32,000 nt of DNA. Origin: Nostoc punctiforme PCC 73102 (GTDB lineage: Bacteria > Cyanobacteriota > Cyanobacteriia > Cyanobacteriales > Nostocaceae). Positions 8,156 to 24,235 of this stretch are shown piece by piece (within the stretch, counting starts at the first letter, position 1; each line of letters begins with the position of its first letter). The DNA is taken from positions 6,420,001 to 6,452,000 of the forward strand of contig NC_010628.1 in NCBI RefSeq assembly GCF_000020025.1, given 5' to 3'. A program made the translations under genes and the position numbers. The notes under the pieces are model-generated. The model was not told the DNA's origin, did no database searches, and saw nothing but the letters and a program-made list of their open reading frames with translations.

Positions 8156-11100
8156 TCAAAATCGATAACCACCTTGAAGCTTGAGGTCAAATCCATTCTC
8201 GCCTGTACCAATTTGAGTTTCTATAAACACACTATTATCGGGGAAATTGTGCCTCACAATGAGTCCATAATTGAAGCCAGAAACTCGGCTGCTCAAACCT
8301 AGATTATTAACACTGTAATTTTTGAGATAAGCACCGGCAGAAATATTCGTGCTGACTTTCTGTAAACCCTGAAATTCAAAGAAAAATTCTTTGCCCATCT
8401 CTAGATTTGCCTTCAAATTTAATCCATGACTAGTACCAAATTCTCCATTGAAAAGACCTAAAAACTCACCATTGCTATTATCCTCAATAAAAGCAATACC
8501 AGGAGCTAAGGAAAAACCGAAATTTCTTTCTTGATGCTGATATAAATAACTTAGAAAAGTCGTGAAAGGATTATTTTTATTAGAGGCGCTATTCCAGTCA
8601 ATTTTCAAGTAGGGTACGTGAGTATTAACAGCTACAGGTTTTTTGGCTGAATTTAAGCGTACATCCGTTTTAATATAGTTGAGAAGTATATTAGTATAGA
8701 TACCCAAAGTTGGTTCTTCTATTCCTAAATTATTATTGGAAACGCCTGGTGCCGAGTTGGCATCTACATTAAACCACGTTCCTAAATTGGCACTATAGTT
8801 AAAGTTTCCAGAAGAACCCGCTGCTAATAATTCAACTGTTGGTAAAGATAGATAACCGTTAAAGTTATTAAAATTAACACCTATTTTGTCAACTCTAGTG
8901 AGTTCCATGTAATCGAAGGCTAAATCAGCTGCTCGCACTTGGAGCGGTACTATCGTAGTATCTGCTGAATTAAATTGCTGTACAAATTGTCCCCCTTGGG
9001 GGTTTGTCAAAATTACTTCTACAGCAGAAGATTCATTAATAGGATTAATGGAAGTATTATTTAAAGGAATTGGAATACCAATGTATGTCAAAGGCCCAAA
9101 TTTTTCATTAGAGAGTCTGAGATCAGAAAAGAATGTATTACCTTCCTCTAAAATAGAAATATCTCTTTCAAGAAACTGAACTGCTCTTTTGTGGTTTCCC
9201 GCTCTTATTTGCAAGATATTAGAGTTTTGAGGAGTGACTTGACTAGGAAATGTGTAAGTTCCAGATACCTGCTCTAGTCCACTAGATGCATTGGCATAAG
9301 ATAAAGTGCGATTCAGCCTGTTATTGATTTGTCTTCTTTGTTCAGCCGTAGCAGATGTATTTAAAGGAGTAAAACCTTCTCCATTCTTAAATTTTTCTCT
9401 AGCTTCTTCTAAACCTTGTTGAATATTATCGATTTTAATAGATTCAAAGACTCTACCTAATAGCAAGCCTAATGTAGAATTAACTGATTGGATTGCATCA
9501 ATACTAGTATCACTGAATTTAGCTGTTATGGATAATCCAGGAGCAGAAAAAATATTAGAGTAAGTAGCTTTAATTGCCACTGGATCGTATTGAATTAAAC
9601 TGCGATTATGAGGATGGCTAACATACAATCTGTGCCAATCAGAACTTTCTTGAGTTTGAGATAGTGTCTCAAACACAGGGTCTCTTCTTCCTAAAGATAG
9701 CCACTGCAAAGAGTTAAGATAATGAAAGTCTTTTTCGGATTGAGAGAGAAAAGGATTGACTGCGACATTTAACAAATCAAAATTATCAAATTTTCCAAGT
9801 TGAGCAACTTTAATACCTGGAAAGGAAGAGACTGGAGCATTAAAACCAAAACCTTCTCCTGTCAAGATATCTCCCCAAAATATGCCAGCAGCTTCTAGGG
9901 CACTCTTAGGAATAATTTGACCCTCCTGGAGTTGGACATTCCCACCGTCTAGCAAAGGTTGTATATTTGTTGTTGGAAAGCTTTGGAGAATCTTGGGAGC
10001 ATTGATAGCATCTAAAGCTTGGAATAAAGCTTGGCCACCGTCAACACTCAAAGTAGAGCCACTACCAATATTGGGTATAGGATTTCTTAGAACTGTGACA
10101 TTAGGAGCGTTTAAGTCAATCCCACTATTAATAGTAACTCTTCCAGCCGGTACACCTTCAGGATTTACTAATTGTCCTGCTATTGAAGTTATAGACAAAT
10201 TCTGAGTATCAACTTCTCCAGTTAAATTCTGAAAGTCTGTAGGTATAGAGAATAAAGATTGCAATCCCCAAAATGCCTGTTGTGAGGTAACATTTTGGGT
10301 GATATAAGTATTAGTTTGTCTCCCTTGATAGATAATACCTGCTTGATAACCTTTAGTTTCTACTACGATTTTATTGTTATCGGTAACCCAGTAAAATTGC
10401 TCATCTTTTGGGAATTTAGCATAAGTAAATTTATCAACAATCTGATTGTCTCCAGAAAATCTTATGCTTAAATCTGTATCTATATAATTTTCGTCTTCAT
10501 TTGGCTTAAATAATTGCGTTGAAAAAGTTAGGTTATCTGTGGGGTTAACAATCCAAGGATATTTATTGGCACTAAATGTAAGGGCATCAAGAATTATTTC
10601 TTTTTGTTTTGCTTGTTGTTGCTTTTTGGAACTACGTAGTTTTTCTATTAGTATTTGTTGTGTTGGTGTGTATGGTTTAGTTGTATTCGGTTTAGATTCA
10701 GTCTCTTCTTCACCTTCATCAGAGGGCTTGGGTGGTTCTACTTTATACTCTTCAATTGGGATAACATCAGCTATGGTGAATTCGGATAACTGTTTGGTTT
10801 TCTGTAAGTTAGAGTTAGCATCTTTTAAAGTTTGTTTTAATAAAGCTTTGCTTTGAAGATTATCTACTTTATCCGGATTTGGCGAAATATTATCGCTAAT
10901 ATTTGCCTGACTTTTGGGAATTAATTCAACTTTAGTAACTTCAGATAACGATTTGATTTCCTGTAAGTTAGAGCTAGCATCTTTTAAAGTTGCTTTTAAC
11001 AGAGTTTTGTTTTGAGGATTAGCTACTTTATCCGGCTTGAGCGAACTATTATCGCTAGCAATTATATGATCTTTTGATATTGATTCAATTCTGGTAACTT

Positions 11101-11419
11101 CGGGTAACTGTTTACTCTTTTGTAAGTTAGAGATGGTATTTTCTAAACTTTTTTTTAACAAAGCCTTGCTTTGTACATTGTTTAGTTTATCAAATTTTAG
11201 GATTAGCGAACTATTATCATCAGCATTTATATTTTTTTCTGCGTTCAAGCTAATATAGTCTTGGCTGTCAAGCTGTAAGGCAATCGCAGAAAATTGAACT
11301 AGTATTATTTTGAATAAAATAGTTGAAGACAAAAAGCAGCTTATAATTCTTTTTAGATTTTTTTTAAACCTCATAAGTGAGATTTTTACAATTCTTTGAT
11401 TTGAGTTATAGGTTTCCAC
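8156..11419 (-). CDS. Large outer-membrane protein: signal/anchor, 3 tandem 53-55-aa repeats, Pro/Glu/Lys linker, large unknown region, C-terminal beta-barrel
   Basis: 1087-aa ORF with a GTG start at 11419 (alternative ATG at 11374 = MRFKKNLKR... followed by a hydrophobic helix). The last ~270 aa show alternating-hydrophobic strands and end ...GFDLKLQGGYRF, where the terminal Phe is the OMP beta-signal. No family recognised. Confidence 0.8.
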   Translation of the reverse strand: METYNSNQRIVKISLMRFKKNLKRIISCFLSSTILFKIILVQFSAIALQLDSQDYISLNAEKNINADDNSSLILKFDKLNNVQSKALLKKSLENTISNLQKSKQLPEVTRIESISKDHIIASDNSSLKPDKVANPQNKTLLKATLKDASSNLQEIKSLSEVTKVELIPKSQANISDNISPNPDKVDNLQSKALLKQTLKDANSNLQKTKQLSEFTIADVIPIEEYKVEPPKPSDEGEEETESKPNTTKPYTPTQQILIEKLRSSKKQQQAKQKEIILDALTFSANKYPWIVNPTDNLTFSTQLFKPNEDENYIDTDLSIRFSGDNQIVDKFTYAKFPKDEQFYWVTDNNKIVVETKGYQAGIIYQGRQTNTYITQNVTSQQAFWGLQSLFSIPTDFQNLTGEVDTQNLSITSIAGQLVNPEGVPAGRVTINSGIDLNAPNVTVLRNPIPNIGSGSTLSVDGGQALFQALDAINAPKILQSFPTTNIQPLLDGGNVQLQEGQIIPKSALEAAGIFWGDILTGEGFGFNAPVSSFPGIKVAQLGKFDNFDLLNVAVNPFLSQSEKDFHYLNSLQWLSLGRRDPVFETLSQTQESSDWHRLYVSHPHNRSLIQYDPVAIKATYSNIFSAPGLSITAKFSDTSIDAIQSVNSTLGLLLGRVFESIKIDNIQQGLEEAREKFKNGEGFTPLNTSATAEQRRQINNRLNRTLSYANASSGLEQVSGTYTFPSQVTPQNSNILQIRAGNHKRAVQFLERDISILEEGNTFFSDLRLSNEKFGPLTYIGIPIPLNNTSINPINESSAVEVILTNPQGGQFVQQFNSADTTIVPLQVRAADLAFDYMELTRVDKIGVNFNNFNGYLSLPTVELLAAGSSGNFNYSANLGTWFNVDANSAPGVSNNNLGIEEPTLGIYTNILLNYIKTDVRLNSAKKPVAVNTHVPYLKIDWNSASNKNNPFTTFLSYLYQHQERNFGFSLAPGIAFIEDNSNGEFLGLFNGEFGTSHGLNLKANLEMGKEFFFEFQGLQKVSTNISAGAYLKNYSVNNLGLSSRVSGFNYGLIVRHNFPDNSVFIETQIGTGENGFDLKLQGGYRF
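10748..11215 (-). repeat. In-frame tandem repeat, 3 units of about 159 nt, inside the large OMP gene
   Basis: DNA units are visibly near-identical (e.g. ctgtaagttagagttagcatcttttaaagtttgttttaataaagctttgctttgaag vs ctgtaagttagagctagcatcttttaaagttgcttttaacagagttttgttttgagg). They encode the consensus N.S..PDKV.N.Q.K.LLK.TLKDA.SNLQ..K.LSEVT at aa 69-224. Confidence 0.85.
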
Positions 11420-14346: not shown

Positions 14347-15420
14347 CTATTTCCGCTGAAGCATTTTAGTTAGCTGATCCAGCAATTGGACTTCTTGCTT
14401 GCTGTCTTCCAATGTCCGCGCCAGTATAATCGCCCTTTCGTAAAAATTACGAGCAGTTAGATAATTACCTTGTTGTTTGTATAACTGAGCGTAAGACTCA
14501 AAAGATTTTAATTCTTCTCGCAAATTTTGCAATTCTTTAGCGAGTGCTAAACGTTGCTCTAGTAAATCAAAAGCCCGTTCATAGCGTCCAACAGCAGTGT
14601 GAGCTTTCACTAAACCGTCAATTGCGCGTAGTTCATTGGTGCGATCGCGGTTGGTTTTAGCTGTCCGCATCGCTTCACCATAACTAGCAATGGTATCTTG
14701 ATAATTTCCCGATGCTAGGTAGGCATCACCTAAATTATTCAGGGTATTTGCTTCACCAATGGCATCGCCAGTCTGACGGCGGAAAATTAAAGCGTTTTCA
14801 TACAATTTAATCGCCTTGTTGTAATCTCCCAACCTAGCAGTTACCAAACCCAAATTGCTCAAAGATAGTCCTTCCCCTTCAATGTTTTTGACACCGTGAG
14901 CAATTGCGAGTGCATCTTCAACTGTTTTACCAGCAGCAGCAGATTCTCCTTCTTGGAGGAGAAATGTACCGATATTATTTAGCACAAAAATCTGAGCTTG
15001 GAAGTCTTTCGTATCACGAGCGATCGCTAATCCTCGTCGTAAAGCATCTTCCGCCTCTTTTGCACTATCAATCTGGATATAAGCCTTTGCAAGCAAATTG
15101 TAAGTCAGACCTTGTGCTTTTAGGTCGCCAATTGAGTGATATAGTTCTAGTGCCTGCAAGCAAGATGCAATTGTTTTATCGGCATATCCTGAAGCGTATT
15201 GTTGTTCACCGATACGTAGTAAGCTATCTGCTTCATCTCTTGATTGCCGCCCAACAGAACTATTTAAAGGACGATGGAGTTGTTGTGTAATATCAACCGC
15301 ACCAGCAGCTATAGGACTCAGCAAAAAAGTAAACAGTAAAAAGCTGTGTAAAAGCACCTGGGAACGAGAAATCACACCTACGCAAACTAATTGCCTTGGA
15401 AATACAAGCCGTTGTTTCAT
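14347..15420 (-). CDS. TPR-repeat protein with N-terminal signal/anchor helix
   Basis: 357-aa ORF with about 7 consecutive 40-aa TPR-like units (e.g. ANTLNNLGDAYLASGNYQDTIASYGEAMRTAK). The N-terminal hydrophobic segment is LLHSFLLFTFLLSPIAAGA. It lies 98 nt downstream of the sigma-like gene on the same strand. Confidence 0.8.
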   Translation of the reverse strand: MKQRLVFPRQLVCVGVISRSQVLLHSFLLFTFLLSPIAAGAVDITQQLHRPLNSSVGRQSRDEADSLLRIGEQQYASGYADKTIASCLQALELYHSIGDLKAQGLTYNLLAKAYIQIDSAKEAEDALRRGLAIARDTKDFQAQIFVLNNIGTFLLQEGESAAAGKTVEDALAIAHGVKNIEGEGLSLSNLGLVTARLGDYNKAIKLYENALIFRRQTGDAIGEANTLNNLGDAYLASGNYQDTIASYGEAMRTAKTNRDRTNELRAIDGLVKAHTAVGRYERAFDLLEQRLALAKELQNLREELKSFESYAQLYKQQGNYLTARNFYERAIILARTLEDSKQEVQLLDQLTKMLQRK

Positions 15421-15518
15421 AAAAATTACCCGTAAAGTTGCGGGTTTAAGTAGAAGGTCTAAGAAGAAGTTTTAAGTTTATAAATTGAAGACAAACACTA
15501 TACGCGTTTACACTTAAG

Positions 15519-16148
15519 TTAGGATTGAGCTAAATCCTCCCCAAAGTATATGGCGCGGATATCTGTGGGTAATTTGTCCTCTAGCATACGATAGCCTTCC
15601 TGAAGAAAATTGGCTACTTCGTTGGGAGCGATCGCTTCTCCTTCGGCTTGCAGATAAGCAGCGATTCTAGTTTCACTCCAGTGGAAAGTTTGAGCCATTA
15701 ACACGATTAATCGTAAAACAGGGGGTAATTGGTCTAATGCCTGTTGTACATAGCACCATAGCGGTGGTGAAGTCGCTTGCAGAGAATAATGAATTGCTTC
15801 TGTCGGTGGTAGCTTAATTTCATTAATACAGAAAGCTGTGATATTAATTAACCAATTTTGCATGGTTAAGGCTGGCTCACCTGATTCAGGGGTGGTTAAA
15901 TTTAGTCCACCGAGTTCGTAATAGATATGTCGCCAGGTGAGGGCAAAGAGATAATCTGCTTGCACAGGCGATCGCGCCGAATGCCGAATTAAGGTATACA
16001 CTATGGGGCTATAGCGGCAAAAAATCACCGTAAAATACTTTCCAGCATCTGGATGGCGCTGAAACAAAGTCAGTAGTTCATGGTCACTGTGATGAAATAG
16101 CGACTTTACCAGAGGATGATTAGCTTCAGGAAAATGAGGAATTTGCAC
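15519..16148 (-). CDS. Sigma-70 family (ECF-like) RNA polymerase sigma factor, tentative
   Basis: 209-aa ORF with a GTG start. The C-terminal LPPVLRLIVLMAQTFHWSETRIAAYLQAEGEAIAPNEVANFLQEGYRMLEDKL looks like a sigma region-4 HTH. The N-terminal FCRYSPIVYTLIRHS...QADYLFALTWRHIY is plausibly region 2. Confidence 0.5.
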   Translation of the reverse strand: MQIPHFPEANHPLVKSLFHHSDHELLTLFQRHPDAGKYFTVIFCRYSPIVYTLIRHSARSPVQADYLFALTWRHIYYELGGLNLTTPESGEPALTMQNWLINITAFCINEIKLPPTEAIHYSLQATSPPLWCYVQQALDQLPPVLRLIVLMAQTFHWSETRIAAYLQAEGEAIAPNEVANFLQEGYRMLEDKLPTDIRAIYFGEDLAQS

Positions 16149-16964: not shown

Positions 16965-17020
16965 ATATTGTGTGGTGCGTAGCTTGCGATCGTAGGCATA
17001 GCACCACACAATATTTTTTT
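16965..17020 (+). terminator. Rho-independent terminator of the VOC-like gene
   Basis: Perfect 14-bp stem ATATTGTGTGGTGC (16965-16978) / GCACCACACAATAT (17001-17014), followed by a T7 run ending at 17020. It begins 23 nt after the stop codon. Confidence 0.7.
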
Positions 17021-17142
17021 AAGTAGCTAGGCATAAATAAATTAAAGGTTGTAGTAAGGACTTTAGTCCTGATAAACCTTGCTATGAGCAATAAATCGCT
17101 CACTAAGAAAAGTCATTATAGGGTTTTGCTAGGTAGAAACTT

Positions 17143-17625
17143 ATGACCCTTGAAAAGATGTACGCATCTCACCTATATGAAACAGATTTCTATACTTGGA
17201 CGCAAGAACAAGTTAACTTGCTCAAAACTCAACAGTGGAATCAATTAGATACAGTCAACCTAATTGAAGAAATTGAAACTTTGGGCAGAAGAGAACGACA
17301 AGAATTGAGAAATCGGCTCGGAGTGTTGCTAGGACACTTACTCAAATGGCATTTTCAACCTGAAAAACGTAGTAATAGCTGGTTGAGTACAATTCGAGAG
17401 CAACGTGTTCAAATTAAGCTGCTTCTGCAAGATAGCCCTAGTTTGAAACCCTACCTCGATGAAGTTTTCCTGACTATTTATGAACTAGGTTTAGCTTTGG
17501 CGATTCGAGAAACTGACTTAGGCGAACAAGTTTTTCCAGAAATATGCCCTTACACTTTAAGCGAAACTCTAAATCCTGAATTCTTACCAAATCTGAATCA
17601 GCTTAATGAGCAGCAGAGCGAGTAA
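17143..17625 (+). CDS. DUF29-family protein
   Basis: 160-aa ORF. LYETDFYTWTQEQVNLLKTQQWNQLDTVNLIEEIETLGRRERQELRNRLGVLLGHLLKW is the characteristic N-terminal signature of the cyanobacterially expanded DUF29 family. Confidence 0.8.
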   Translation: MTLEKMYASHLYETDFYTWTQEQVNLLKTQQWNQLDTVNLIEEIETLGRRERQELRNRLGVLLGHLLKWHFQPEKRSNSWLSTIREQRVQIKLLLQDSPSLKPYLDEVFLTIYELGLALAIRETDLGEQVFPEICPYTLSETLNPEFLPNLNQLNEQQSE

Positions 17626-17644
17626 TTACCTCAATCCTGTTTTA

Positions 17645-20410
17645 TCACCGTAAACCGTGGCAAATAAAAGCAGCCCAGTAATGAGGATCTGAAAAAGGAA
17701 ATTGCTGAGTCGAGTTTTCAATTTCTTTAATTCGCCTGTTCAATTGGGCATACATATTATATTCAAACTTCCATTGTTGATATTCAATAGAATCTGAAGG
17801 ATATTTTTTTCTATTTACTATCAGTTTTTTTTCCTTTGCTTCTACTTCATGGAATATTTTATTGAGGTCTACTTTTTTAAAGTCTCTTAGCTTAATTTGA
17901 GCTTTTTGTAAAGCTTCAGGACGATTTTTACCTTCTTGTCGCTGCTGGTAGTAAAAAATGGAAAATAATGCTGTAGCTAAATCATTGACTGACCACAGAG
18001 TACTAACTACACTTCTAGCACCAGCACACAAAAAGCCTGTAGAGAGAGTAAGAATATCATCAGTTAGAGATGGAGTACCCAAATTAGTTTCGCAGCAAGA
18101 GAGAAACACTTCTACAAGTTGAGGTAAACGCCAGCTTGGTGTCATCAATTGCCCCAACGTGATGCTGCTGTCCTGCGCTAATTTTAACTGTGATTCTAAA
18201 GGATTATCGAGGCAAGATTGGGCATGGTGGCACGAATGAAGTACTTGAACTTGTTGTGCTAGCTGTCGATAGTTTTTAGAGGTGGCTTGACTGCTACCAA
18301 TTAATCTATTTTCTGATGGAATGTTATACATTTGGGCGAGTTTTTCGCCTTCAAATCTGGCACAGGGAAGATTATCTTCGGCATCTTCCACAGTTCCATA
18401 TTCTAGAGATGTTCCATTAAATGTCCCTACATTGTTGCGTTGTTGACAAAATTCTAAAATTTGGCAGCTTGGGGTATAACGAATCAGAAATTTATCTCCT
18501 AAATATTCCTGATATTCTCCTGTAGGCAAAGCAGCGAAGGGAATTTGATGGAGTAACAGGTGAGGAACTAAAATTAATTCTTCTATTCCTTGAAGATGTT
18601 GGGAAATGAGTTGAGATATTTGCAGCCGTTCAGCTAATTCGCACAGAATACTGTTAATCTGAGTTTCCCATTTTTTGGGTTCATCTCTATAAGGCAATAA
18701 CCAATTCTGCTCAATCCAGCCTTGCAACGTATTTAACCCTTGTCCTGTGCAGGTGTGGAGAGTAATTTGGTCTTTCTGCACGACAAAGATATGGGTATCG
18801 CTGTTGGTAGTGTAAAAACTGAGGATAGCTGTATTGGGTTGGTCGATTAGCTTTTGAATTTCTGACAAGCTGAGGGGGTTAACTTGAATTTCGCCAGCTA
18901 ATACGGGATCTTCGCGTCTGAGATTTTCCCAAACTTGTTGTTTTTGGGTTTCTAAAAGTGCGATCGCTTCATTGTAAGCTTCCCAAGCAGCACGTGTATC
19001 ACTACGGTTATTTTCAGATTTATGGCTTTGGCGTTCTTTGCCAATTATTTGTTGCAGTTCTTCATACTGCTGCAATAACTCCGCAACTGCTGGGGGAATT
19101 TCGCCACTTTGGTAGAGATTGTTACTTGCCATTAAGTCTACCAGGCGTTTGGAACGCGATCGCTCTGAATATTCAAAAGCTTTTTCTATTTGTCCAGCAT
19201 TGATGCAAGCTTGCACCATACTTTCGTAAATGCCGATGGATTCTTCTAAAATCTTTTGACGGCGTGATTCAGATTTTATCCAACTACGGCTAGTCTCTAC
19301 TGCTTTAATAGCAATACTATAGCCTTTAATAGCTTCGTCCCAATATCCAGATTTAAAAGCTGTATTACCAAGATTGCGAGAAGCTCTAAGTGATTCATTA
19401 GGGTAAGCGGTGTGTGTATGAATTTCTAAGGCTAACCAATAATAATTTATTGCAGAAGTGGCTAATCCTTGATCGCGGTAAGCATTGCCTAAGTTATTCT
19501 GAAGTATGGCATATGTAAATGGATAATTATCACGAGTATAAAATTTTAAAGAATTCTGATAAGCTTGAACTGCCAAGTTAAAATTTTCTTGTCGATCTCC
19601 CTGAACCCTTTTATCATAAGCAATACCCATATTCATGTGAGTATTTGCACATTCTTCAGTAAATGATTCTTTATTCAATACACCTAATACTTCTTTGTAA
19701 ATATCTATAGCTAATTCAAAGTTATTTGAGAGATTACGATGTGGAGTATCACAGTACAGAGATGCGAGATTGTTTTTAACAATAACCCATTTTTCAATAT
19801 ATCTATACAGGGTAAAAATTTCTAAAACTGCATTACAGATTGATACTAATTTATCTAAATTTACATAGTTATCATCTTTTTTTATATGTTTGATTTTTGC
19901 AGAGTAAAGAGGGATCAAATTAGTTTGAGTTTCTGCCCACTCTATAGGATATTCTTCACGAGAATAAATTTTTAAAGCATCCTGATAAGCTGCGATTGCC
20001 TTTTCTCGATTCTCTGTAGGATCGCCATAAATGCGATTACCATAAGCATTTCCCAAATTAAGTTTAGATATTGCCCACTCTATAGGATATTCTTCGCGAG
20101 TAAAAATGATTTCAATAACCTCGCAACACGCGATTGCAATATCTAAGTTGTCAGCTATGTTGCCATGTGGAAACTGTCCAATTAATGTGCAAAAATTTCC
20201 AATAGCTGCGGCTGCTGCTACTGTTTGTGCATTGTATAGATTTTCTCCAGCAAAGTAATTTTTAGCCCAATGACGCAACAATACAGCAAAATTCAAATCT
20301 AATTTGTCTAAATTATCTTGCAGTAAAGGATAAACTATCTTTTTATCACTATAACTTTGTGATATTTTTATCAATGCTGTTAACAAAAAATTTATCCGTT
20401 CTTCTATCAT
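17645..20410 (-). CDS. TPR-repeat CHAT-domain protein (caspase-like clan CD peptidase)
   Basis: 921-aa ORF. Residues ~100-420 carry TPR-like units (EYPIEWAISKLNLGNAYGNR..., YPFTYAILQNNLGNAYRDQG...), followed by a coiled-coil segment at ~430-500. The CHAT domain at ~520-921 has VLHSCHHAQ (His728), VFLSCCETNLG (Cys773) and the family-typical end DPHYWAAFICHG. Confidence 0.9.
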   Translation of the reverse strand: MIEERINFLLTALIKISQSYSDKKIVYPLLQDNLDKLDLNFAVLLRHWAKNYFAGENLYNAQTVAAAAAIGNFCTLIGQFPHGNIADNLDIAIACCEVIEIIFTREEYPIEWAISKLNLGNAYGNRIYGDPTENREKAIAAYQDALKIYSREEYPIEWAETQTNLIPLYSAKIKHIKKDDNYVNLDKLVSICNAVLEIFTLYRYIEKWVIVKNNLASLYCDTPHRNLSNNFELAIDIYKEVLGVLNKESFTEECANTHMNMGIAYDKRVQGDRQENFNLAVQAYQNSLKFYTRDNYPFTYAILQNNLGNAYRDQGLATSAINYYWLALEIHTHTAYPNESLRASRNLGNTAFKSGYWDEAIKGYSIAIKAVETSRSWIKSESRRQKILEESIGIYESMVQACINAGQIEKAFEYSERSRSKRLVDLMASNNLYQSGEIPPAVAELLQQYEELQQIIGKERQSHKSENNRSDTRAAWEAYNEAIALLETQKQQVWENLRREDPVLAGEIQVNPLSLSEIQKLIDQPNTAILSFYTTNSDTHIFVVQKDQITLHTCTGQGLNTLQGWIEQNWLLPYRDEPKKWETQINSILCELAERLQISQLISQHLQGIEELILVPHLLLHQIPFAALPTGEYQEYLGDKFLIRYTPSCQILEFCQQRNNVGTFNGTSLEYGTVEDAEDNLPCARFEGEKLAQMYNIPSENRLIGSSQATSKNYRQLAQQVQVLHSCHHAQSCLDNPLESQLKLAQDSSITLGQLMTPSWRLPQLVEVFLSCCETNLGTPSLTDDILTLSTGFLCAGARSVVSTLWSVNDLATALFSIFYYQQRQEGKNRPEALQKAQIKLRDFKKVDLNKIFHEVEAKEKKLIVNRKKYPSDSIEYQQWKFEYNMYAQLNRRIKEIENSTQQFPFSDPHYWAAFICHGLR

Positions 20411-20478
20411 CTTTAATTGGCTCTTAGCTAGTTATTTAGCTGTTGTTTACTATTCCCAAAAATATATACGTAGAAAAA

Positions 20479-21192
20479 TCATTTCCAAATTGCTGCCAAC
20501 TTCTCCAATAGTTCCTCAGCTAAATCTAATAACTCAATTTCATCAAATTCATCACTTGTTCCGCGATTAATTTCTGCAACCGCCATACTATCTGCCAATA
20601 CATTTTTCACAGCAAAAATCCTATCTTCTTCTTCAGATAAACTCAAACATTTTTCCAACTCTACAGCAACTTCTTGGATTGTCCTTGAACCCAAACGCGC
20701 TCTCACTTTCACCGCAACCGAATCGTTACTTTCCAGCAGTTTTACCAAAGCTGTTTTCAGTCCATTATCCTCGCTAGAAAACTTCTCAACGGCTACACGC
20801 ACATATTCCCGCACGCTCATATTTGCCGCCAATGCCTTTTGTACAACGACATCTGGTACATCTACCAGCAATACACCTTCGTTATCGCTAGCTTGATATA
20901 AGTCATCTCCTTGTTTGACGGCTATCAGCAAATTTGCACCCAAAGCGTGTAAATAGTGCAACACTGATTCTAATTCATGTTCCTTTAAAGCCGACTCTAA
21001 CTTGGACACCGCAGCTTGCTTTACTCCCAGTTTTTGAGCTAGCTGTGCCTGAGTCAATCCTGCTTTATTACGTATTTCACGCATGGCATCGGTAAGATAA
21101 AGGCGCAAATACTCTAACTTTCCCGCCAAAATAACCTCTGGTTCGTCGCTTACCTTTTGCTGCAACCAAGCTTGAAAATTAGGCTTTTTCAT
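20479..21192 (-). CDS. XRE-family helix-turn-helix protein, HigA-like antitoxin position with ~140-aa extra C-terminal region
   Basis: 237-aa ORF. HTH is REIRNKAGLTQAQLAQKLGVKQAAVSKLESALKEHELESVLHYLHALGANL. Its ATG overlaps the stop of the upstream toxin-like gene (ATGA at 21189-21192). Confidence 0.8.
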   Translation of the reverse strand: MKKPNFQAWLQQKVSDEPEVILAGKLEYLRLYLTDAMREIRNKAGLTQAQLAQKLGVKQAAVSKLESALKEHELESVLHYLHALGANLLIAVKQGDDLYQASDNEGVLLVDVPDVVVQKALAANMSVREYVRVAVEKFSSEDNGLKTALVKLLESNDSVAVKVRARLGSRTIQEVAVELEKCLSLSEEEDRIFAVKNVLADSMAVAEINRGTSDEFDEIELLDLAEELLEKLAAIWK

Positions 21193-21596
21193 GACTTTTC
21201 CCTTTGCTGCAATTCACGCAATCTCACTCTTGCAGGTTCTTTGTCTCTATCTTTGATAGCGCCGTCGTATTTCTTCATAAAGGCGTACAGCACCACAAAT
21301 CTCTGAGGAGTAGCAGCCGTTAAGATAAATCGGGGATTATGTTCGCTCTTAGTCATCCGTAACTCATACAAATCATCTTCCAGTTTCTCAAAGATACCAC
21401 TGGTAAGTGATGCGAGTCCTTTGTCGCACAGGTAGCGAAGATTAACTTGCAGACGCTTGGTTTCGGAAGCACTCAGTAACGATTTTGGTGGATTTTCTGG
21501 TTGCTCCTCTTCGGGAATCATCCTGATGAAAAAAGCCAGCAAATCTTTGGGGATTTCCCCATTCACATCTAGATAAAGTTCCCAATTCCAGGTCAC
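21189..21596 (-). CDS. Gp49/HigB-type (RelE/ParE superfamily) toxin-like protein
   Basis: 135-aa ORF with a GTG start preceded by GAGG. EKLEDDLYELRMTKSEHNPRFILTAATPQRFVVLYAFMKKYDGAIKDRDKEPARVRLRE follows the phage Gp49-like/HigB pattern (LyElR..-..R.....-..vvLl.aF.KK....p..e...A). Confidence 0.7.
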   Translation of the reverse strand: MTWNWELYLDVNGEIPKDLLAFFIRMIPEEEQPENPPKSLLSASETKRLQVNLRYLCDKGLASLTSGIFEKLEDDLYELRMTKSEHNPRFILTAATPQRFVVLYAFMKKYDGAIKDRDKEPARVRLRELQQREKS

Positions 21597-21608
21597 TTCC
21601 TACCTCAC

Positions 21609-21637
21609 AATATAGTATTCCTTATAAGGAATGTCAA
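21609..21637 (-). promoter_or_regulatory. Candidate sigma70-type promoter of the toxin/HTH operon (-35 TTGACA, 17 nt, -10 TATATT)
   Basis: The minus strand reads ...aagaaTTGACAttccttataaggaatacTATATTgtgaggtaggaaGTG. The -10 lies only 12 nt from the GTG start, implying a very short leader. Confidence 0.5.
21617..21632. promoter_or_regulatory. Operator-like perfect 16-bp palindrome ATTCCTTATAAGGAAT (fills the -35/-10 spacer)
   Basis: Verified self-complementary by hand. It overlaps the last base of the -35 hexamer and the whole spacer. Confidence 0.6.
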
Positions 21638-21643
21638 TTCTTT

Positions 21644-21659
21644 ATTCCTTTAAAGGAAT
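21644..21659. promoter_or_regulatory. Operator-like perfect 16-bp palindrome ATTCCTTTAAAGGAAT (just upstream of the -35)
   Basis: Verified self-complementary by hand. It has the same ATTCCTT/AAGGAAT half-sites as 21617..21632, centred 27 bp away. Confidence 0.6.
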
Positions 21660-21828
21660 ATCATATAGAATCAGTGAGTGCAACTTATACCAATTCTGTA
21701 TGAAGATGCAATAAACCATATTAAGGCTGAAGTATAGAAAGAAAAACGAGCCGCAAAGAGCGTAAAGGGCACAAAGAAAGAAGAAGCCAAGAAAATTCGG
21801 CGCAGCCTTACAAAGACATGGTATTAGG

Positions 21829-21866
21829 TAATAAAAATGGTGCGTTAGGCAAAGCCATAACGCACC
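21829..21866 (-). terminator. Rho-independent terminator of lysS (GTGCGTTA...TAACGCAC repeat family)
   Basis: The minus strand reads GGTGCGTTATGGCTTTGCCTAACGCACC followed by ATTTTTATTA, starting about 25 nt after the lysS stop. Confidence 0.65.
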
Positions 21867-21890
21867 CGAATGTTTATATGCTTAAGTAGA

Positions 21891-23576
21891 TCAACTTAAC
21901 TGTTCAAACTTGAATTTTCCTTTAATGAACTTGTTAAAGTGTTGACCTTTAGACGGTGCATTATCCAAGTCTTCTTTGACACTGGGAGGGACTTTGAAAT
22001 ACTCGTAAACACTTCCACTGTCAAATTCAATAGTCAGTGTTTGGGTTTTTTGTTCATAGCTAAATTGCTTAATAACGCTGCCTTCAGGCTTAAGCAGAGG
22101 GAAAGCAATTACATCCCGAATGCTGGCAGAATCAGTTAACAACATTACTAAGCGATCGATCCCAATCCCTAAGCCACCTGTAGGCGGCATACCGTATTCA
22201 AGGGCTGTCAAAAAGTCTTCATCTACACCTTGGGCTTCTAAGTCGCCAGCAGCTTTTCTTTCGGCTTGGGCTTCTAGGCGTTCTCTTTGATCGATGGGAT
22301 CTGTAAGTTCTGAGAAGCTATTCCCAGTTTCTCGCCCGACGATAAATAACTCAAATCTTTCCACCAAACCAGGTTGAGAACGGTGGGGTTTTGCTAGGGG
22401 CGAAATTTCTACTGGGTAATCAATTACAAAGGTAGGTTGAATTAAATTAGCTTCTACTTTCTCTTCAAAGGCTAAATTCAGTAATTTACCAATTGATTTG
22501 GCTTCATCTACACCAGGAATACCAGCATTTTTACTTGCTGTTTTTGCTTCTTCCAAGGTTTGGAAAGAATTGAAATCTAAGCCAGTAAATTCTTTAACTA
22601 AATCGTGCATTGTCACTCGCCGCCAAGGTGGTGTTAAATCTATAGGTTCCCCTTGGTAGGTAATTTGCAGCGTGCCGAGTACCTCTTGGGCGACAGTGGT
22701 AATAATCCCTTCAGTCAGCGCCATCATATCGTTGTAGTCGGCGTAGGCTTGGTAAACTTCAATCGTTGTAAATTCGGGATTGTGTCGAGTCGAAATTCCT
22801 TCATTACGGAAAATCCTTCCCAATTCAAACACCTTTTCAAAACCACCTACAATCAACCGCTTGAGATGGAGTTCTGTGGCAATTCGCAGATACAATTCCA
22901 TTTCTAAGGTGTTGTGGTGGGTGATAAATGGACGCGCATCTGCACCTCCAGCTTCACTCTGTAAAACTGGCGTTTCAATTTCGAGAAAATCTCGCTGTTC
23001 CAAATAACGGCGAATCCCAGCTGTAATTTGGGCACGACGGCGGAAAGTTTGCCGCACTTCCGGGTTAACAATCAGGTCAACGTAACGCTGACGGTAGCGC
23101 TTGGCAACATCCGTCAATCCATGCCACTTGTCGGGTAGGGGCAACAGGGATTTAGTCAGGATAGTATATTGTTTAACGTAGACAGATAACTCGCCCTTTT
23201 CAGTCCGTTTAATAGTACCTTTAACTCCCAGGATATCGCCTGCATCTGTGAGTTGTTTTAAATGATTGAAGGCATCAGCATCAATATCTGCCATGCTTTC
23301 TTGGATGCGATTTTTATCCAAATAAAGCTGAATTGTGCCAGTTTCATCTTGCAAGGTGAAGAAAGCCAGTTTACCGAAAACGCGACGCGCCATAATGCGT
23401 CCAGCGATCGCAACTTCTAAATCAACTTCTTCACCACTGGCTAAATCGGCAAACTGTTCTTGCAACTGTGCTGCATGATGGGTAGATTCCCAGCGATAGG
23501 CGTAGGGATTAGTCCCTAGCTGCTTGAGTTGTTCTACTTTTTCCAGCCTTGCGGCTCGGATATCTTCTTCCGACAT
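21891..23576 (-). CDS. lysS: Lysine--tRNA ligase (class II) with C-terminal KTSC domain
   Basis: 561-aa ORF. Class II LysRS motifs include [38 protein letters not shown] and [14 protein letters not shown]. An additional ~60-aa tail reads ...[52 protein letters not shown]. Confidence 0.97.
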
Positions 23577-23678
23577 GGTAACGAACTAAATAGGGCAAGA
23601 TTAATTATAGATGCTGCAAAAGTTGAGAGTAAGAGATATTTGCACTTTGCAGATGATAATATCGCCAAACCAAATACA

Positions 23679-24235
23679 ATGACACAAACTAGAGTGCGCT
23701 TGTGGAATGTAGATGAATATCACCGGATGCTTGAGACGGGTATTATTACAGCCGATGAACGGGTAGAACTGATTGATGGGCAAGTTATCCCCATGAGTGC
23801 GAAAAATCCCCCCATGCAGCGACAACGCTGTGTGCGTCTGATTATCTCAAGAGAGCGCTAGCAGAAGTTGCCTTAGTTCGGGTGCAAGATCCCATTCAGT
23901 TAAGCCAATACTCGGAACCTGAACCAGATATTGCCGTTGTCCGCATTGATGCGCGAAAGTACATCGATCGTCATCCTGCACCCAATGAAATCTTTTTATT
24001 GATTGAGGTAGCAGATACAACGCTAGACACCGATCGCAAACAGAAAGCACCTTTATATGCTAAGGCAGGAATTGCTGACTACTGGATTTTGGATGTGAAT
24101 CAGCGTCAGGTTTTTGTTTTGGGCGAACCACTTTTGCAAGGCTACAATCAACAATTGATTTTGCAGGACTATACAACGTTATCCTTGATTGCATTTCCAG
24201 AAATTGAAGTTCAGATTAATCAACTGTTTCCATAA
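23679..24235 (+). pseudogene. Uma2-family (DUF820) endonuclease gene interrupted by a frameshift in a C6 tract
   Basis: The first frame gives MTQTRVRLWNVDEYHRMLETGIITADERVELIDGQVIPMSAKNPP. The family-typical continuation (S)PHAATTLCASDYLKRALAEVALVRVQDPIQLSQYSEPEPDIAVV...LLIEVADTTLDTDRKQKAPLYAKAGIADYWILD is in the frame one nucleotide behind. The switch point is CCCCCC at 23808-23813. Confidence 0.75.

Follow-up and report, generated by a model that had tools for sequence, protein, structure and literature searches.

The question raised by this locus is whether three adjacent genes on the chromosome of Nostoc punctiforme PCC 73102, encoding a Gp49/HigB-like toxin, an XRE-type helix-turn-helix (HTH) protein and a TPR-CHAT caspase-like protease, work together or merely lie side by side. 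We examined them in a 32 kb window, by which we mean the whole stretch of DNA that was analysed; coordinates are positions in this window unless another locus is named. The three minus-strand open reading frames (ORFs) lie head to tail (proteins ACC83533, ACC83532 and ACC83531) and are flanked by lysS (21891..23576) and by a convergent DUF29 gene (17143..17625). Our analyses indicate that they very probably constitute one functional module, in which a domain at the C-terminus of the XRE protein, here called C-dom, connects that protein to the protease. The three genes are as follows.

21189..21596, minus strand: Gp49/HigB-like (RelE-fold) toxin gene; 135 amino acids (aa), GTG start, PF05973
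20479..21192, minus strand: XRE-HTH repressor/antitoxin-like gene; 237 aa, recognised by HTH models
17645..20410, minus strand: TPR-CHAT gene; 921 aa, TPR_12 and CHAT domains (Pfam)

An earlier note on this DNA, made from the letters alone, had described a 135-aa Gp49/HigB ORF that overlaps a 237-aa XRE partner in toxin-first order, followed at a distance of 68 nucleotides (nt) on the same strand by a 921-aa TPR-CHAT protein with an intact His/Cys dyad. ORF calling and Pfam confirmed the first pair, including the 4-nt ATGA overlap (21189..21192), and the ORFs, the CHAT model and the putative catalytic motifs confirmed the third gene. The XRE protein of the window is 100% identical to database protein P0001.

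Conservation of the three-gene linkage was assessed in 80 loci, which were retrieved from species-representative genomes with a profile of the 237-aa protein and scored by tblastn with the window proteins. In each of the 80, the gene immediately upstream of the XRE gene is that of the toxin. Loci with at least 3.5 kb of downstream sequence were considered informative for linkage; there are 72 of these, and 56 carry a full-length TPR-CHAT gene downstream of the toxin-XRE pair on the same strand. Forty-six of the trio loci are Nostocales-type; they have lysS, orf200, the TPR357 gene and the sigma-like ORF in common as well, so that adjacency there could be plain synteny. The other 10, which are Oscillatoriales-type, come from Floridaenema, Microcoleus, Oscillatoria, Laspinema, Okeania and relatives, and around them the flanking genes of the window were not detected; in two more non-Nostocales loci the CHAT match is cut off by the end of the locus or contig. 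These counts support the linkage between a toxin-antitoxin (TA) pair and a CHAT gene that the earlier note had suspected. The CHAT gene is decayed in nine Nostocales loci and absent from five, while the toxin-XRE pair is intact there, C-dom included; since the gene has been lost or has decayed in 14 loci with an intact pair, the linkage is strong but not obligatory. The module is inherited vertically at a fixed chromosomal site and does not reside on a mobile island.

Two observations concern the surroundings of the module in these genomes. In Nostocales the module has two conserved neighbours (14347..16148, minus strand), a 209-aa ORF that weakly matches Sigma70_r4_2 and a gene for a 357-aa TPR protein; neither was detected in the non-Nostocales loci by tblastn with the window proteins. 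The sigma-like ORF (15519..16148) was also considered as a relative of the gene that precedes a DUF1822-CHAT pair in locus L088; this was rejected, as the two are unrelated on comparison. Some XRE-CHAT gaps outside Nostocales hold unrelated small cassettes (L072, 5171..6588; L079, 7810..8595), with HSDR_N-like, DUF433 with MazF, and Uma2 genes. These Oscillatoriales inserts leave the gene order of the module unbroken and were not counted as parts of it.

In the XRE protein, HTH_3, HTH_31 and HTH_37 cover only aa 29-93, HipB/Y4mF-type antitoxin models match below their own cut-offs, and no Pfam, NCBIfam or PADLOC model matches aa 95-237. The full length of the protein is nevertheless kept in more than 100 cyanobacterial relatives. 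The earlier note had spoken of about 140 extra C-terminal residues without a motif. These residues are better described as two parts, a middle stretch and C-dom. The protein is divided as follows.

20914..21108, minus strand: HTH DNA-binding domain, aa 29-93; HTH_3 E 1.9e-9, HTH_37 spanning aa 29-93
20764..20910, minus strand: middle stretch, aa 95-143; predicted strand-helix-helix, low AlphaFold2 (AF2) confidence
20482..20763, minus strand: C-dom, aa 144-237; four-helix unit, disordered loop and acidic C-terminal helix, DEIELLDLAEELLEKLA
20563..20574, minus strand: candidate protease site E207-I208-N209-R210 in the disordered loop of C-dom; speculative

The whole XRE protein was modelled poorly by AF2, with a predicted local distance difference test score (pLDDT) of 58.5. 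The model built from the C-dom alignment reached 79.7; in it four helices are followed by a loop of low confidence and then by the long C-terminal helix, which is acidic and nearly invariant among relatives. A Foldseek search of this model against the PDB returned nothing below E 1. A ribbon-helix-helix in aa 107-139 of the middle stretch was entertained as a mere impression and given up, as Pfam at E 10 did not support it. In the loop, an arginine occupies the R210 position in 227 of 235 C-dom sequences and E/D-x-x-R is present in 166 of 235, counts that are inflated by relatedness, the 235 sequences not being independent. The loop motif is usually ESNR-G and lies 7-8 aa ahead of the acidic helix, and pLDDT at the site is below 50.

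The distribution of C-dom provides the second line of evidence. A C-dom profile matched only 104 clusters among 1.84 billion representative proteins, which defines a small cyanobacterial family. Its 68 non-fragment members comprise 34 DUF1822 proteins with C-dom as their central part, a few XRE proteins (two XRE-type members carry a TRADD-like N domain), one TPR protein with repeats of the CHAT type, and a remainder that resembles the Y proteins described below. C-dom is homologous to the core of DUF1822 proteins; the Pfam model DUF1822 (PF08852) itself matched neither the 237-aa protein nor C-dom alone, even at E 10. We then considered the genomic context of five unrelated C-dom architectures, and in four of them the C-dom gene lies immediately upstream of a CHAT gene. 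Downstream of protein P0280 (HTH, TRADD-N, C-dom) a TPR-CHAT protein of 1164 aa is encoded that shares 47% identity with that of the window, the toxin gene being absent; downstream of P0281 (TPR, C-dom) the TPR-CHAT protein has 1200 aa. In P0261 (DUF1822 N-terminal part, C-dom) 33 nt separate the gene from that of a 1265-aa TPR-CHAT protein, and in P0292 (DUF1822) 22 nt separate it from the gene of a CHAT-NACHT-HEAT protein. The fifth, P0271, lies on a short contig that is uninformative on context.

The reciprocal search started from the conserved half of the CHAT protein and covered metagenomes; there, 29 non-redundant loci encode a full-length relative and extend upstream for 1 kb or more. 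A C-dom ORF is present on the same strand less than 2.5 kb upstream in 22 of the 29 and 3.3-4.4 kb downstream in four; three have none. The upstream partners are DUF1822-like in 14 cases, XRE with Gp49 in five and Y-like in three. The check proposed in the earlier note, whether homologues of the C-terminal extension and of the CHAT protein co-occur, was thus borne out from both sides. These counts lead us to conclude that CHAT proteins of this subfamily have as their constant partner a C-dom protein whose N-terminal module is exchangeable; in N. punctiforme this place is taken by the XRE antitoxin-like protein.

In many loci the XRE and CHAT genes are separated by an insert that encodes two proteins, X (about 231 aa, no Pfam match) and Y (about 155 aa). 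At its C-terminus Y repeats the final ~95 residues of the XRE protein with 45-70% identity, and elsewhere the Y gene lies downstream of the CHAT gene or upstream of the toxin gene. Pfam searches at E 10 with C-dom, the middle stretch, X and the N-terminal domain of Y gave nothing useful. The window lacks the X-Y cassette, which occupies the XRE-CHAT gap of about 15 Nostoc loci. In Fischerella the cassette follows lysS on its own, and in Cylindrospermum PCC 7417 it is duplicated beside a NACHT-HEAT gene in the same syntenic slot. Examples of the cassette are listed here in the coordinates of their own loci.

L040, 7844..9071: X-Y cassette
L081, 6247..7462: X-Y cassette
L083, 6244..8808: X-Y cassette

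In one Nostoc metagenome-assembled genome (L070, 7435..10437) C-dom is fused in frame to the N-terminus of TPR-CHAT in a 1000-aa ORF, and the XRE ORF retains only 145 aa. The fusion may be natural, or else a deletion or assembly artefact.

The upstream region and the gap between the XRE and CHAT genes bear on how the three genes would be expressed. Their elements are the following.

21609..21637, minus strand: putative sigma-70-type promoter, TTGACA, 17 nt, TATATT; 11 of 12 matches
21617..21632, minus strand: operator O1, palindrome ATTCCTTATAAGGAAT, occupying the -35/-10 spacer
21644..21659, minus strand: operator O2, palindrome ATTCCTTTAAAGGAAT, immediately 5' of the -35 hexamer
20411..20478, minus strand: XRE-CHAT spacer, 68 nt, without terminator

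TTGACA-17-TATATT is the top promoter-like site in 17000..22200, and its -10 box is 12 nt from the GTG start of the toxin gene (21597..21609, minus strand). The TTGACATTCC-N6-GGAAT arrangement is kept in 21 diverse orthologous loci, including Oscillatoriales, with a few single-base changes in a half-site or the -35 hexamer. Across these loci the half-sites of the spacer operator are fixed or near-fixed whereas its central 6 nt vary freely, which is the pattern expected of a real operator. TTGACA and a -10-like box are conserved across the lineages examined, and an upstream palindrome equivalent to O2, at times with one degenerate half-site, is present in most of them and not evident in L056 and L066. 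Because O1 fills the spacer between -35 and -10, repression by occlusion is predicted, presumably through a dimer of the XRE protein bound at O1. Past the stop codon of lysS a hairpin with a T-run (~21815..21850) insulates the toxin promoter. Orthologues in Laspinema, Oscillatoria and Okeania have longer leaders and ATG starts.

The earlier note had seen no terminator in 20411..20478, and we likewise found no terminator-like site in this 68-nt spacer. Its predicted RNA fold is no more stable than that of shuffled sequence (z 0.15), and an Rfam search of it matched no family. The exact pattern ATTCC-N6-GGAAT has two matches in the 32 kb, O1 and O2, and none in the spacer ahead of the CHAT gene. 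A weak promoter-like site at 20488..20461 was dismissed, as it is not conserved among orthologous gaps, in which no conserved promoter was seen; these gaps measure 2-80 nt in about 20 loci by longest-ORF calling. With a gap that holds no terminator, stable fold, conserved promoter or operator, co-transcription from one autorepressed promoter is the simplest reading, and we infer it from the sequence. The earlier note had named three findings that would speak against its proposal, namely a want of conserved linkage, a mapped terminator or transcription start site in the gap that shows independent transcription, and a known, unrelated domain at the C-terminus of the XRE protein. Signs of each were looked for in the sequences, and none was found.

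The protease is built from a variable and a constant half. The CHAT domain (Pfam PF12770) spans aa 597-919 with an E-value of 6e-40, and TPR_12 spans aa 301-362. Its features are as follows.

19331..20410, minus strand: hypervariable N-terminal TPR array, aa 1-360, putative sensor; low GC content, 0.30-0.33
17648..19330, minus strand: conserved helical linker and CHAT caspase-like domain, aa 361-921
18224..18226, minus strand: putative catalytic His729 codon; motif LHSCHHA, invariant in relatives
18092..18094, minus strand: putative catalytic Cys773 codon; motif FLSCCETN, invariant in relatives

LHSCHHA and FLSCCETN are both invariant in an alignment of 10 diverse relatives, and by analogy with other CHAT and caspase proteins H729, rather than H728, is the putative catalytic histidine. 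Among 34 orthologues, identity to the window protein is 29-54% over aa 1-360 and 72-96% over aa 361-840, and total length ranges from 803 to 1263 aa, with up to 1811 aa elsewhere. Median identity across Nostocales is 66% for CHAT and 88-96% for the neighbouring genes. A constant protease joined to a hypervariable TPR array resembles immune receptors. The Csx29 structures 8d9f and 7x8a align to aa 611-813 with E-values of about 5e-6, and the NCBIfam Csx29 model (NF041237) scores 64.7 bits, far below its cut-off of 300. GC content is 0.30-0.33 within 19501..20500 only, against 0.39-0.41 in the protease part and 0.41-0.44 in the TA genes. The earlier note had cautioned that low GC in the CHAT gene might point to neighbours of different origin. 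The low GC is real, but it is confined to the TPR-coding part, with the protease part near the values of the TA genes, and a dip restricted to the variable part is no argument for a foreign origin of the whole gene.

The toxin matches Pfam Gp49 (PF05973) with an E-value of 6e-8 and 33 bits against a cut-off of 23.9, and NCBI labels it a RelE/ParE family toxin. Within Nostocales it has a median identity of 91%, outside them 75%, and phmmer found no match for it in the PDB.

Based on these observations, we consider it about an even call that the genes form an operon-like module in which the XRE protein is at once autorepressor, antitoxin and client of the protease, probably its substrate, and in which cleavage is triggered by a sensor. 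One autorepressed promoter would drive all three genes. The N-terminal HTH of the XRE protein would bind both ATTCC-N6-GGAAT operators, and the protein would neutralise the Gp49/HigB-like RNase, while C-dom would tie it, by a predicted physical contact, to the adjacently encoded TPR-CHAT protease. The hypervariable TPR array would sense a trigger, for example a phage- or stress-derived molecule, upon which the CHAT domain would cut the XRE protein, most likely in the disordered loop near R210, ahead of the acidic helix. Loss of the repressor and antitoxin would derepress the operon and free the toxin, leading to translation arrest. A broader version, to which we give somewhat less than even weight, is that C-dom serves as a portable 'client tag' for the TPR-CHAT subfamily of filamentous cyanobacteria, the tagged proteins being docked on the protease encoded beside them, and cut or gated by it, once its fast-evolving TPR sensor fires. 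The XRE antitoxin, the DUF1822 proteins, the Y proteins and the HTH-TRADD-N protein may all be such clients.

Several points weigh against the model as a whole. Known CHAT enzymes such as Csx29 are not Arg-specific, which makes the proposed R210 site weak. The fixed chromosomal site and the high conservation (91% for the toxin) are unlike typical mobile defence or TA loci. In Nostoc the leader would be just a few nt long if the mapped promoter is used, which is unusual. The Gp49 match of the toxin is modest and comes with no close solved structure, and we found no experiment or transcript data on these genes in the literature. C-dom-bearing X-Y cassettes also occur without an adjacent CHAT gene (L081, L083), and the 14 loci with CHAT lost or decayed indicate that the pair can work without an adjacent protease, in which case C-dom may have another role.

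Part of this evidence would suit a different relationship between the same two proteins. C-dom of the XRE protein could bind TPR-CHAT and keep the protease inactive, as a pseudosubstrate or inhibitor, so that one labile protein restrains both an RNase and a protease; a stop in synthesis of the XRE protein, or its proteolysis by housekeeping enzymes, would then release both effectors, with CHAT as the main executioner. The adjacency of C-dom and CHAT and the L070 fusion fit such restraint equally well, Y proteins could provide additional inhibitors through their second C-dom, and repeated loss of CHAT with retention of the XRE gene is what one would expect of a dangerous effector. Separase, a structural relative of TPR-CHAT, is moreover restrained by securin (PMC11506125). 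A hypervariable TPR array, however, looks like a sensor of variable ligands and not like a dock for a highly conserved acidic helix, and C-dom, which should decay along with a lost CHAT if inhibition were all it did, stays intact in L041, L043 and L056, although paralogous CHATs in those genomes could explain this. We therefore regard restraint by the XRE protein as possible but on the doubtful side. It is improbable, in our judgement, that the two proteins have no contact at all and that the toxin-XRE pair only controls or stabilises the operon and so sets the level of CHAT, C-dom being used for toxin binding or oligomerisation. TA-like cassettes do frequently regulate adjacent genes, the operators and the single promoter fit autoregulation, and the pair persists without CHAT. 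Against this, C-dom proteins that have neither an HTH nor a Gp49 partner (DUF1822, Y and TPR-C-dom proteins) still adjoin CHAT genes, P0280 pairs with an orthologous CHAT in the absence of a toxin, and L070 joins C-dom to TPR-CHAT. That the genes are chance neighbours of different origin, for which the lower GC in 19501..20500 could be cited, is scarcely credible: the GC dip is limited to the TPR-coding third of the CHAT gene, C-dom adjoins CHAT in unrelated architectures, and the linkage outlasts complete turnover of the flanks, which contradicts such a view directly.

A separate question is what the module is for. The abortive-infection-type defence role put forward in the earlier note may apply, or filamentous cyanobacteria may have domesticated the module as a developmental or stress switch with no anti-phage function, the latter proposal being compatible with either molecular model. 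There is precedent in HetF, a CHAT-type protease that acts in heterocyst development. Such a switch would fit the fixed position beside lysS throughout Nostocales, the 88-91% identity of the TA genes, the housekeeping genes next to them and the restriction to filamentous taxa. It would also fit the PADLOC result (PADLOC-DB 2.0), in which no defence system was called and only generic HTH models and weak TPR and BovA matches appeared; scans of the kind suggested in the earlier note, made with PADLOC, NCBIfam and Pfam, yielded no named system. On the other hand, the TPR array is diversifying and varies in repeat number, CHAT has been lost repeatedly, and in Cylindrospermum X-Y cassettes and a NACHT-HEAT gene occupy the same slot. 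The family also overlaps the conflict systems of Kaur et al. (PMC8195603). On balance we consider a domesticated switch unlikely.

Comparison with known systems places the module with the tripartite TA systems and with the caspase-type conflict systems that multicellular bacteria carry; it is a variant of these and not a new category. It shares with HigBA, a type II Gp49-XRE system, the toxin-first order, the overlapping genes, a toxin of PF05973, a partner of the XRE-HTH type and a putative promoter with operator-like palindromes. In contrast to HigBA, its antitoxin has 237 aa instead of about 90-120, including a domain associated with CHAT genes; the third gene, conserved downstream, encodes a large protease; and inheritance is vertical at one chromosomal site where HigBA is patchy and mobile. 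In the Mycobacterium tuberculosis toxin-antitoxin-chaperone (TAC) system (HigB1, HigA1 and a SecB-like chaperone), a C-terminal extension makes the antitoxin dependent on the product of the third gene. The TAC toxin is of the gp49 family (PMC11980606). The antitoxin-like protein of the module has a C-terminal extension too, tied genomically to CHAT genes. The third gene of our module, however, encodes a TPR-CHAT protease and not a SecB chaperone, the expected outcome is destruction or gating and not protection, and no similarity between C-dom and the chaperone-addiction segment of TAC was detected.

Another likeness is to type III-E Craspase (Cas7-11 with Csx29). Csx29 cleaves Csx30, and Craspase is a sensor-activated protease that cuts a dedicated partner controlling transcription. 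The module shares with it the TPR-CHAT architecture, the alignment of CHAT to Csx29 and, on the proposed model, a similar logic, but its presumed sensor is its own TPR array and its partner is an XRE antitoxin. Neither Cas7-11/gRAMP nor Csx30 is among the adjacent genes (lysS, DUF29, an unassigned 200-aa ORF and the sigma-like ORF), and no CRISPR scan was made. CapP/CapH offers a precedent for a regulator controlled by a protease, and the PADLOC capH model weakly matches the HTH part of the XRE protein. CapH/CapP of CBASS, ImmR/ImmA of ICEBs1 and DdvA all resemble the module in that a regulator is associated with a protease that would inactivate it when a signal arrives. Both CapP and ImmA, however, belong to the metallopeptidases, and no toxin or C-dom is involved. 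DdvA is a TPR-CHAT anti-sigma factor for which sigma release by proteolysis has been proposed (PMC11506125); it differs in being a membrane protein that would cut itself, again with no toxin or C-dom. Kaur, Iyer, Burroughs and Aravind (2021) reported that DUF1822 and ECF sigma genes adjoin caspase genes in multicellular bacteria (PMC8195603). These neighbourhoods share with ours the filamentous cyanobacterial hosts and a CHAT or caspase gene beside a DUF1822 protein, but the window protein has C-dom only and lacks the N-terminal region of DUF1822, and the place of the ECF sigma factor is taken by an XRE HTH and a Gp49 toxin. In the same paper DUF1822 is described as a TPR protein, and C-dom is not singled out. 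Full-text literature searches brought up DUF1822 in just two papers and neither the Gp49-XRE-CHAT module nor C-dom nor these proteins in any, in agreement with the earlier note, which knew of no named system.

Elsewhere in the window, three further observations were made. The stretch of lowest GC (0.28-0.38) includes a 1087-aa ORF without a Pfam match at E 1e-5 (8156..11419, minus strand). A Uma2-family (putative restriction endonuclease-like) gene at 23529..24235 on the plus strand is apparently split into ORFs of 110 and 117 aa; it is probably disrupted, because the Pfam match is limited to the profile's second half. LysS has 561 aa in the window, and its match ends at aa 500 in several relatives, so the window copy has a C-terminal add-on of about 60 aa.

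How the toxin is activated is the central question for most type II TA systems. If our reading is correct, a dedicated protease that carries its own sensor and is encoded beside an antitoxin with a protease-associated domain would be a concrete answer for one family, and in N. punctiforme a HigB-type toxin would be triggered by a caspase-like protease and not by Lon or Clp. This would represent a bacterial counterpart of the logic of separase and securin, or of Craspase and Csx30, coupled to a TA pair. To our knowledge, few CHAT proteases have known targets (HetF, Csx29), and likely substrates or partners would thereby be identified for the CHAT subfamily of multicellular cyanobacteria. A function would also be assigned to the core of DUF1822, a Pfam domain of unknown function, and the combination of a constant protease with a variable TPR array could be reprogrammed as Craspase was.

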